This document shows, piece by piece, positions 1 through 297 of a DNA stretch of 397 nt. The stretch comes from Escherichia coli (GTDB lineage: Bacteria > Pseudomonadota > Gammaproteobacteria > Enterobacterales > Enterobacteriaceae). Position numbers and translations under genes: made by a program. Below the pieces are notes generated by a model. That model worked only from the letters and a program-made list of their open reading frames with translations, did no database searches and was not told the DNA's origin. Numbering within the stretch: the first letter of the stretch is position 1; each line of letters begins with the position of its first letter. The DNA is taken from NCBI RefSeq assembly GCF_003334385.1, contig NZ_QOWN01000185.1; one strand, given 5' to 3'.

Positions 1-297
1 CAGCGTGATGTTGCTGCACTTGATGCCAGATACTCGAGGGAATTAGCCGATGCGAGAGCTGAAAATGAAACTCTGCGTGCTGATGTTGCCGCTGGTCGTA
101 AGCGCCTGCGGATCAACGCCACCAGCTCCGGTACCGTGCGTGAAGCCACCGGCACCTCCGGAATGGATAATGCAACCGGCCCCCGACTGGCAGACACCGC
201 TGAACGGGATTATTTCACCCTCAGAGAGCGGTTGATGACAATGCAGAAGCAACTGGAAGGGGCGCAGGACTATATCCGCACTCAGTGTATTAACTAG
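1..297 (+). CDS. Rz: Rz-family i-spanin (inner-membrane spanin subunit), C-terminal periplasmic portion; 5'-partial, start codon lies upstream of the window
   Basis: Frame 1 is open from nt 1 to a TAG at 295-297 and translates to QRDVAALDARYSRELADARAENETLRADVAAGRKRLRINATSSGTVREATGTSGMDNATGPRLADTAERDYFTLRERLMTMQKQLEGAQDYIRTQCIN*. From memory this aligns nearly residue-for-residue with the C-terminal two thirds of lambda Rz (shared blocks QRDVAALDA, DVAAGR, VREAT, PRLADTAERDYFTLRERL, TMQKQLEG, QC near the C-terminus). The layout also matches: a helical segment, a Gly/Ser/Thr/Ala-rich linker (nt 115-183), a second helical segment, and a Cys near the C-terminus (nt 286-288). It is missing from the supplied ORF track, presumably because it has no in-window start codon. 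Confidence 0.9.
   Translation, partial: QRDVAALDARYSRELADARAENETLRADVAAGRKRLRINATSSGTVREATGTSGMDNATGPRLADTAERDYFTLRERLMTMQKQLEGAQDYIRTQCIN
36..40 (+). promoter_or_regulatory. Putative Shine-Dalgarno for Rz1, lying inside Rz coding sequence
   Basis: GAGGG at 36-40 with a 9-nt spacer to ATG at 50. An internal ribosome binding site is needed because Rz1 starts inside Rz in a different frame. Confidence 0.45.
50..235 (+). CDS. Rz1: Rz1-family o-spanin (outer-membrane lipoprotein spanin subunit), complete, embedded in the +1 frame of Rz
   Basis: The ORF runs from ATG 50-52 to TGA 233-235 and encodes MRELKMKLCVLMLPLVVSACGSTPPAPVPCVKPPAPPEWIMQPAPDWQTPLNGIISPSESG. It has a basic N-terminus, a hydrophobic core and a lipobox V-S-A-C with the predicted lipidated Cys20 at nt 107-109. 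Gly at +2 and Ser at +3 (no Asp at +2) predict outer-membrane sorting. The mature part is very proline-rich (12 Pro in ~42 residues) with a single Cys30 at nt 137-139. The C-terminal half (CVKPP, WIMQP, PDWQTPLNGIISPSE) is close to lambda Rz1 as I recall it. A GAGGG Shine-Dalgarno sits at 36-40, 9 nt upstream of the ATG. Confidence 0.88.
   Translation: MRELKMKLCVLMLPLVVSACGSTPPAPVPCVKPPAPPEWIMQPAPDWQTPLNGIISPSESG

Follow-up and report, generated by a model that had tools for sequence, protein, structure and literature searches.

Reading-frame overlap and the composition of the Rz linker in a lambdoid embedded spanin locus of Escherichia coli

Introduction

The locus described here raises the question of how the proline-rich segment of one protein and the low-complexity linker of another can be read from the same nucleotides, and which of the two sets the composition of the other. 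The window, that is, the whole 397-nucleotide stretch of Escherichia coli DNA that was analysed, carries the 3' part of an i-spanin gene (Rz) and a complete o-spanin gene (Rz1). In the embedded class defined by Kongari et al. (2018, PMC6139136), the o-spanin gene lies inside the i-spanin gene and in a different frame, from ~0.4-0.5 L to ~0.85-1.0 L. The original prediction for the window held that the proline codons of Rz1 force a flexible Gly/Ser/Thr/Ala-rich linker on Rz and that the two products constrain each other. Complementarity of the Rz linker and Rz1 has already been published for lambda (Cahill et al. 2017; Kongari et al. 2018), and the coupling itself is elementary codon arithmetic and a re-derived published property; the figures given here for natural variants and for T7-like phages add support and no new idea.

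Results

Identity and layout of the locus

Frame 1 of the window is open from its first base to a TAG stop at 295-297 and reads ...RINATSSGTVREATGTSGMDNATGPRLADTAERDYF... before ending in TQCIN. It corresponds to the 3' two-thirds of a lambdoid Rz, the first window residue being residue 55 of the protein. The frame-2 ORF at 50-235 (translation, MRELKMKLCVLMLPLVVSACGSTPPAPVPCVKPPAPPEWIMQPAPDWQTPLNGIISPSESG) has the position of the annotated lambda o-spanin and matches Pfam PF06085 with an i-E of 1.9e-19 (residues 20-60 on model positions 1-40 of 41) and PHROG 3198 with 1.7e-29. For Rz, a full-length query was rebuilt from the window sequence and a 5' extension taken from a 99.2%-identical E. 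coli prophage locus (L088); this rebuilt query matched Pfam PF03245 (Phage_lysis) at 4.4e-49 over model positions 1-125 of 126 and PHROG 13 at 1.5e-72. At the DNA level the window shares 94-98% identity with lambdoid phages, Stx-converting ones among them, and ~82% with lambda, and the matching phage records carry an Rz annotation at the homologous gene. In L088, Rz1 starts at 0.46 L and ends at 0.86 L of Rz, and the lambda-type rows in Table S4 of Kongari et al. (2018, PMC6139136) have the o-spanin starting at 0.47-0.48 and ending at 0.87 of the i-spanin length. Judged by these sequence matches and this layout, the locus belongs to the lambda family of two-component spanins, with its genes in the embedded arrangement.

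The rest of a lysis cassette would not fit into a window of this length; its order is holin, lysozyme, Rz in the matching genome ASU11 and holin, lysozyme, an antirepressor insert and then Rz in the nearest E. coli prophage. At the Rz N terminus, where the family has a transmembrane domain, the nearest genomic copy reads MLSAFTVILLVVCGALWLA; the window begins at residue 55 and does not reach this part. The prophage with this copy has a broken large terminase gene, so that present-day function is not assured. The Shine-Dalgarno-like motif upstream of Rz1 (Table 1) lies at the place equivalent to an RBS annotated in the lambda imm21 record. A search of NCBIfam gave no match for Rz, Rz1 or the downstream ORF, and a scan for promoters and terminators found none inside the Rz/Rz1 overlap. 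Rfam at E <= 1 returned only a chance snoRNA match of 12 bits, so no RNA element emerged from that search that could account for the conservation.

Table 1. Features of the window and tree-free pN/pS of its segments
Feature	Position (nt)	Strand	Basis or remark
Rz (i-spanin), 3' portion, 98 codons and stop	1-297	+	Frame-1 translation; the window lacks the 5' end with the TMD
Shine-Dalgarno-like GAGGGA, 9 nt before the Rz1 ATG	36-41	+	Predicted from sequence
Rz1 (o-spanin), complete, 61 aa	50-235	+	ORF list; wholly within Rz, +1 frame
Rz1 signal peptide (predicted)	50-106	+	Sequence MRELKMKLCVLMLPLVVSA, then Cys; AF2 helix 2-18
Rz inter-helix linker, full-length residues 86-118	94-192	+	AF2: no regular structure
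Rz1 lipobox V-S-A-C	98-109	+	Sequence; LVVSA before Cys
Rz1 spacer, Cys20-Cys30, variable, four extra prolines	107-139	+	Highest substitution rate among homologues
Rz Ser codon AGC, lambda C99 equivalent	124-126	+	Homologues have Cys
Rz1 Pro-rich core VKPPAPPEWIMQPAPDWQTP	140-199	+	Frame under selection; substitution phase and pN/pS
Rz distal helix (CC2 equivalent)	193-291	+	AF2 helix 119-151; Rz-frame pN/pS 0.19-0.24
Rz C-terminal Cys (lambda C152 equivalent), in TQCIN before the stop	286-288	+	Frame-1 translation
Segment under the Rz1 Pro-rich core	140-199		pN/pS Rz 1.58, Rz1 0.17 (tree-free)
Flanks	1-106 and 200-294		pN/pS Rz 0.19-0.27, Rz1 >= 0.9; changes mostly at Rz position 3, its own wobble
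Segment under the Rz1 spacer	107-139		pN/pS Rz 0.58, Rz1 0.82; changes 15/13/20 over Rz codon positions 1/2/3, no phase preference, highest rate

Predicted features of the two proteins

AF2 was run on the full-length Rz with a 36-sequence alignment, window codon k being residue k+54. The model has a helix at residues 2-85, a 33-residue coil at 86-118 and a second helix at 119-151, and pLDDT falls below 50 at residues 101-114 (nt 139-180), under the Rz1 Pro-rich core. Rz is thus modelled as two predicted helical, putatively coiled-coil, periplasmic domains joined by an unstructured linker, which lies where the flexible linker had been proposed.

For Rz1, the AF2 model gives a signal-peptide helix at residues 2-18 and a mature chain without regular secondary structure. 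Cys20, the predicted lipoylated residue, is encoded at 107-109, and the residue at +2 is Gly; lipoproteins are sorted to the outer membrane when the residue at +2 is not Asp. Lipoylation, outer-membrane localisation and the complex with Rz are known for lambda only (PMC5295617). A second cysteine, Cys30 at nt 137-139, is the equivalent of lambda C29 and is present in 45 of 48 homologues. The spacer between the two cysteines comes in four types among the homologues (GSTPPAPVP, GSMPVAPQP, ASTPTVQAP and TSKQSVSQ). In the core that follows, P, W, M and D are kept in 44-48 of the 48, and in the KPPAPP stretch P33, P34, P36 and P37 are invariant or nearly so.

Codon map of the overlap

The Rz1 frame (+1) is shifted one base downstream relative to that of Rz, so that the two C's of a proline codon CCN end one Rz codon and its third base starts the next. 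Each Rz1 proline therefore makes Rz read NCC (Ala, Pro, Ser or Thr), while the proline wobble base decides how the Rz codon after it begins. Nucleotides 119-199 encode Rz1 P24 to P50; of these 27 codons 11 specify proline, and every one of the 11 overlies an NCC codon in the Rz frame (in order A, T, S, T, A, T, T, S, T, P and T). The 23-residue Rz string at nt 115-183, NATSSGTVREATGTSGMDNATGP, holds five Thr, four Gly, three Ala and three Ser. Each of its four GGN glycine codons consists of the G of a CCG proline codon and the first two bases of the next Rz1 codon, which opens with G. NCC or GGN accounts for 15 of the 29 Rz codons in nt 115-201, and the G/S/T/A content of the segment is 61-64% vs 26% for Rz elsewhere in the window. 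The original prediction had placed the linker and the Pro-rich segment on the same nucleotides, with prolines read as NCC and linker glycines arising through GGN; its frames, coordinates and peptide strings were exact, and the codon assignment held at 11 of 11 prolines and at 4 of 4 glycines.

What each frame forces on the other

In a recoding test, the Rz1 protein was held fixed and its synonymous codons were enumerated under the requirement that the Rz frame stay free of stops; the reciprocal test held the Rz protein fixed. Realistic codon use was represented either by E. coli usage or by the usage of the flanking phage genes. With Rz1 fixed, 11 Rz positions were limited to A/P/S/T and four to C/G/R/S, and at nt 166, 172, 187 and 190 a single Rz residue was possible. 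The recoded Rz segment then had a G/S/T/A content of 50% with uniform codons and 55% with realistic ones, and realistic codon use makes the observed 64% unremarkable (P about 0.1), and likewise the number of linker glycines (P = 0.2-0.4). With Rz fixed, 3.2-4.2 +/- 1.6 prolines were expected in the +1 frame vs the 11 observed, an excess over chance (P <= 3e-4). Since a fixed Rz yields only three or four of the 11 prolines, the coupling runs from Rz1 to Rz and is not equal both ways.

Ser, Thr and Ala in the Rz linker are thus forced by Rz1, whereas Gly is merely permitted, C, G, R and S being equally possible at its positions; the glycines are present because the proline codon is CCG, the commonest proline codon. 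The claim that Rz1 forces the linker therefore stands for three of its four residues, and the claim of mutual constraint stands in one direction, in that Rz1 fixes the composition of the Rz linker, but not in the other, since a fixed Rz falls far short of the prolines and Rz is unconstrained at nt 140-199 in the homologues.

Substitution patterns in homologues

From 87 homologous loci, 48 distinct Rz sequences were obtained and aligned by codon, and the +1-frame Rz1 was intact in all 48. Changes were mapped by Fitch parsimony on a single NJ tree, and tree-free pN/pS was also computed in each frame (Table 1). In nt 140-199, changes at Rz codon positions 1/2/3 numbered 27/9/9 vs 112/126/295 in the flanks (chi-square P = 1.3e-8), tree-based counts that ignore recombination in a mosaic phage family and have wide bootstrap intervals. 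Rz codon position 1 is the wobble position of Rz1. Among the 44 close unique homologues, 25 changes in nt 140-199 were synonymous in Rz1 only and 8 in Rz only, compared with 76 and 264, respectively, in the flanks (Fisher P = 1e-9). The recurrent changes in nt 140-199 are toggles among the proline codons CCG, CCA, CCT and CCC, upon which Rz flips among G/S/R/C or T/A/P/S. A rough estimate in the style used for overlapping genes gave 0.19 [0.03-0.54] for Rz1 and 0.79 for Rz over the same nucleotides. The pieces REAT, VDNAT and PRLADTA of the Rz segment are conserved, and this is inseparable from the conservation of Rz1, in which W, M and D leave no choice. Over the Rz1 signal peptide (50-106), Rz is the constrained frame (pN/pS of 0.27 for Rz and 1.40 for Rz1).

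Nucleotides 115-199, which had been treated as one coupled segment, are therefore two regions: nt 115-139 are relaxed in both frames, and nt 140-199 are owned by Rz1.

The linker cysteine

The Rz position at nt 124-126 is a Cys in 48 of 48 unique homologues, even though the codon contains a wobble base of Rz1. This linker Cys, C99 in lambda, is described as constant in the lambda family though dispensable (Kongari et al. 2018, PMC6139136); it does not define function because either C152, the C-terminal Cys of the intermolecular disulfide, or Rz1 C29 suffices. Rz is thus not wholly passive in the overlap, this one linker Cys being the only clear requirement on its side.

The window has Ser at this position through T124A, a change that is synonymous in Rz1 (CCT>CCA); the nearest E. 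coli genome shows only three differences from the window, this one included. Exact-match scans of three contig collections (genome_contigs, viral_contigs and metagenome_contigs) found no other instance of this putative Ser allele.

Discussion

Our results are best explained by an ordinary lambdoid embedded spanin pair in which the composition of the Rz linker is largely the translational shadow of Rz1 and of normal codon usage, a reading to which we assign a probability of roughly 0.9. Selection acts at nt 140-199, on the Pro-rich core of Rz1, which, going by experiments in lambda, where it is essential, may serve as a membrane-fusion motif. The Rz residues read from the same bases would form a flexible, structure-free hinge between two helical domains, and this hinge may take nearly any sequence of small or polar residues; that the linker can be replaced is again taken from the lambda experiments. 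Because such a hinge is permissive, its G/S/T/A-rich make-up would be largely a shadow of Rz1 plus codon usage. Outside nt 140-199 the roles swap, with Rz constrained and the Rz1 signal peptide and tail following, and nt 107-139 are relaxed in both frames. The codon mapping, the one-way forcing, the flip in substitution phase and the predicted disorder are our own observations on this locus and its homologues, and the functional claims are taken from lambda, at ~82% nucleotide identity, and not from the window allele.

An alternative would be that both proteins have sequence requirements throughout nt 115-199 and that the DNA is a compromise between them. The linker Cys speaks for this, being kept in every distinct homologue through a wobble position of Rz1 and reported as constant in the family by Kongari et al. 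(PMC6139136), as does the low diversity at two of the three codon phases in nt 140-199. However, the Rz pN/pS of 1.58 and the overlap estimate of 0.79 reveal no detectable constraint in nt 140-199 beyond that of Rz1, nt 107-139 are relaxed in both frames (0.58 and 0.82), and the composition of the linker is fully predicted by the Rz1 protein and codon usage. We therefore regard such a balance as unlikely.

The causation could also run the other way, so that the Rz linker is selected to be rich in Gly, Ser and Thr for flexibility and the prolines of Rz1 are a by-product in the +1 frame. Linkers of the flexible kind often have a high G/S/T content, S/T/A/P codons of Rz allow Rz1 to read proline, and with uniform codons the linker is slightly richer than forced in G/S/T/A (P = 0.02) and in Gly (P = 0.05). 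Selection on the Rz side for these residues was considered on the basis of that excess and rejected, as the excess is gone under realistic codon usage. The by-product explanation also leaves most of the prolines unaccounted for in the test with Rz fixed, and in nt 140-199 the changes are synonymous in Rz1 and nonsynonymous in Rz, with the prolines kept in 44-48 of the 48 homologues while the Rz residues toggle. In lambda, moreover, mutagenesis marks the prolines as essential, and the Rz linker can be replaced (PMC5295617); we find this explanation very improbable. That the Pro-rich +1 ORF is a chance product of C-rich composition and Rz1 no gene at all can be dismissed, since, although short alternative-frame ORFs are common and the antisense strand also has one of 106 aa (43-363), a candidate third gene that was ruled out, being open in only 1 of 48 homologues, Rz1 has its Pfam and PHROG matches, a signal peptide and a lipobox and is intact in all 48 with purifying selection in its frame.

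With the Rz linker read as a shadow of Rz1, the locus is a clean textbook case of two overlapping frames sharing out selective constraint: the Rz spacer takes whatever the proline codons of Rz1 spell, and this accounts for the way in which one gene can harbour a second, essential one. A wider proposal would be that, one Cys aside, embedded i-spanin linkers are pure o-spanin shadow, that a sharp hand-over between frames occurs in at least two unrelated families (lambda-like and T7-like), that the codon-phase flip is a general signature for the functional core of hidden embedded genes, and that the window holds the first lambda-family Rz without C99. We consider this proposal tentative and rather doubtful.

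Working with disembedded copies of lambda Rz and Rz1, Cahill et al. (2017, PMC5295617) subjected both to mutagenesis and concluded that domains silent in one gene match the sensitive domains of its partner. Mature Rz1 is encoded wholly inside a mutationally silent part of Rz of ~40 codons, (Ser-Gly)8 can stand in for Rz residues 100-115, the prolines of Rz1 are mutationally sensitive positions, and its Pro-rich region, preceded by a spacer, is an essential fusion motif (PMC5295617), where the original prediction had pictured a polyproline-like stalk. Kongari et al. (2018, PMC6139136) noted that the Rz1 periplasmic domain and the flexible Rz linker share DNA, that the part of the i-spanin gene under the Rz1 periplasmic domain must be more permissive, and that the unusual proline content of o-spanins could ease the arrival of new i-spanin segments in another frame. 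The pair studied here resembles that of lambda in its PF03245 and PF06085 families, in +1 embedding at about 0.46-0.87 of the Rz length and in a PPxPP...QPxPDWQTPLNGIIS core over the Rz L2 linker. It differs in sequence (~82% nucleotide identity), in PPAPP instead of PPPPP with the proline run followed by E where lambda has A, in Ser at C99 of Rz, and in one extra spacer codon and four spacer prolines (GSTPPAPVP vs TSKQSVSQ in lambda), and this spacer makes Rz read NATSSGTV instead of the KAVCQSV of lambda.

T7 gp18.5/gp18.7 and the other embedded pairs are unrelated in sequence to the lambda type, and T7 has only four prolines. In seven such pairs (T7, BcepMu, Bcep22, BcepC6B, F116, B3 and epsilon15), the o-spanin is in the +1 frame, and the prolines of the mature o-spanin lie over A/T/S/P of a central low-complexity segment of the i-spanin. 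The co-localisation of linker and Pro-rich region, whose absence the original prediction had named beforehand as refuting it, thus holds in 8 of 8 embedded pairs examined. In the high-GC embedded pairs the i-spanin shadow is Ala/Gly-rich (GCC) and not Thr/Ser-rich. Chou-Fasman helix propensity correlates with o-spanin proline density at r = -0.74 in the window, -0.61 in T7 and -0.47 in lambda, and only weakly in the high-GC phages with their Ala-rich shadow, so composition and register were used instead. In the T7 18.5/18.7 family (77 distinct loci), constraint passes from the i-spanin frame to that of the o-spanin across the mature o-spanin, where pN/pS is 1.0-1.3 in the i-frame and 0.63 in the o-frame, compared with 0.3-0.47 and about 1.0-1.2, respectively, in the flanks.

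T4 PseT.3/PseT.2 (separated genes) and P2 LysB/LysC (overlapped) belong to the same functional class, an i-spanin with a lipoprotein o-spanin. The highest G/S/T/A content in any 23-residue periplasmic window of the i-spanin is 0.35 in T4 PseT.3 and 0.48 in P2 LysB, against 0.65 here, which, on these two controls, fits a low-complexity linker that arises through embedding. For overlapping viral genes in general, compositional coupling is attributed to Rancurel et al. (2009), as that work is cited in PMC6139136. As in viral overlaps generally, one frame here is ordered or constrained while the other is disordered and biased in composition, and the constraint is partitioned along the overlap. Unlike in those overlaps, both products belong to one complex, and each is 'disordered' over the constrained part of the other.

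Results

At window positions 124-126, the codon AGC places Ser in Rz at the equivalent of lambda C99, a position that is Cys in all 48 unique homologues; Kongari et al. (PMC6139136) describe this Cys as constant throughout the family. The change T124A leaves the Rz1 protein unaltered, being synonymous in that frame (CCT>CCA). Exact searches of genome, viral and metagenome collections with 26- to 36-mers carrying the Ser codon returned none. The Ser could be a private variant, a sequencing error or the outcome of weakened selection on a prophage that is decaying. In Rz1, GAA at 161-163 gives Glu immediately after the proline run (PPAPPEWIMQ); 46 of the 48 homologues have Ala here, and Glu is common to only two of them (L066 and L076). 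The base change that produces this Glu also turns Gly-Val into Gly-Met in Rz.

In the nearest genomic copy, the prophage locus L088 (positions 1-5397) from E. coli CP062876, the lysozyme gene is separated from Rz by an antirepressor gene and an ORF of 43 aa, and the annotation marks the large terminase gene, interrupted by an internal stop, as a pseudogene. These features suggest that this prophage is mosaic and probably defective.

Across the homologues (L002-L088), the N-terminal transmembrane segments of Rz, encoded 5' of the window, are of at least three unrelated types (MSRVTAIISALVICII..., MNRVLCVVIIVLLVAC... and MLSAFTVILLVVCGAL...), and the conserved periplasmic domain begins at HYRDNAI whichever of them precedes it. 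The joining of unrelated segments to one conserved domain suggests that modules have been swapped at the transmembrane boundary. At the other end of Rz, two homologues (L007 and L045) carry a 9-residue C-terminal extension beyond the last Cys (TKLAFYYPEDT and TKQAFYYPEDV), which may be the equivalent of an additional, largely unstructured segment reported at the C-terminus of the H-19B i-spanin (Kongari et al., PMC6139136).

Additional features of the window
Feature	Position	Strand	Remarks
Downstream ORF	321-397, continues past window end	+	Begins MKKLLVTVKPFQGTIPFRILQRGRV; GGAGAA upstream of start
Terminator-like hairpin	357-372	+	GGAACAATTCCGTTCC, then GTATTTTGCA; within downstream ORF; consensus match only
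Antisense ORF, 106 aa	43-363	-	Gly-rich middle GGAGGFTHGTGAGG

The counterpart of the downstream ORF in the nearest genome is a 74-aa hypothetical protein (WP_000735653.1). This ORF may represent one piece of a larger gene, since its match to PHROG 2571 (unknown function) is limited to positions 100-172 of 291 and a Pfam search with it gave no match. For the hairpin, the consensus scan found 1 versus 0.3 expected. The antisense ORF was rejected as a gene because it is open in only 1/48 homologues; its Gly-rich middle mirrors the Pro codons.

Discussion

In the T7-like 18.5/18.7 spanins (L089 and L098-L177), the constrained frame switches from the i-spanin to the o-spanin over the mature o-spanin. 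This family is unrelated and has few prolines, yet it displays the same frame hand-over as Rz/Rz1; the hand-over therefore goes with embedding and not with the prolines.
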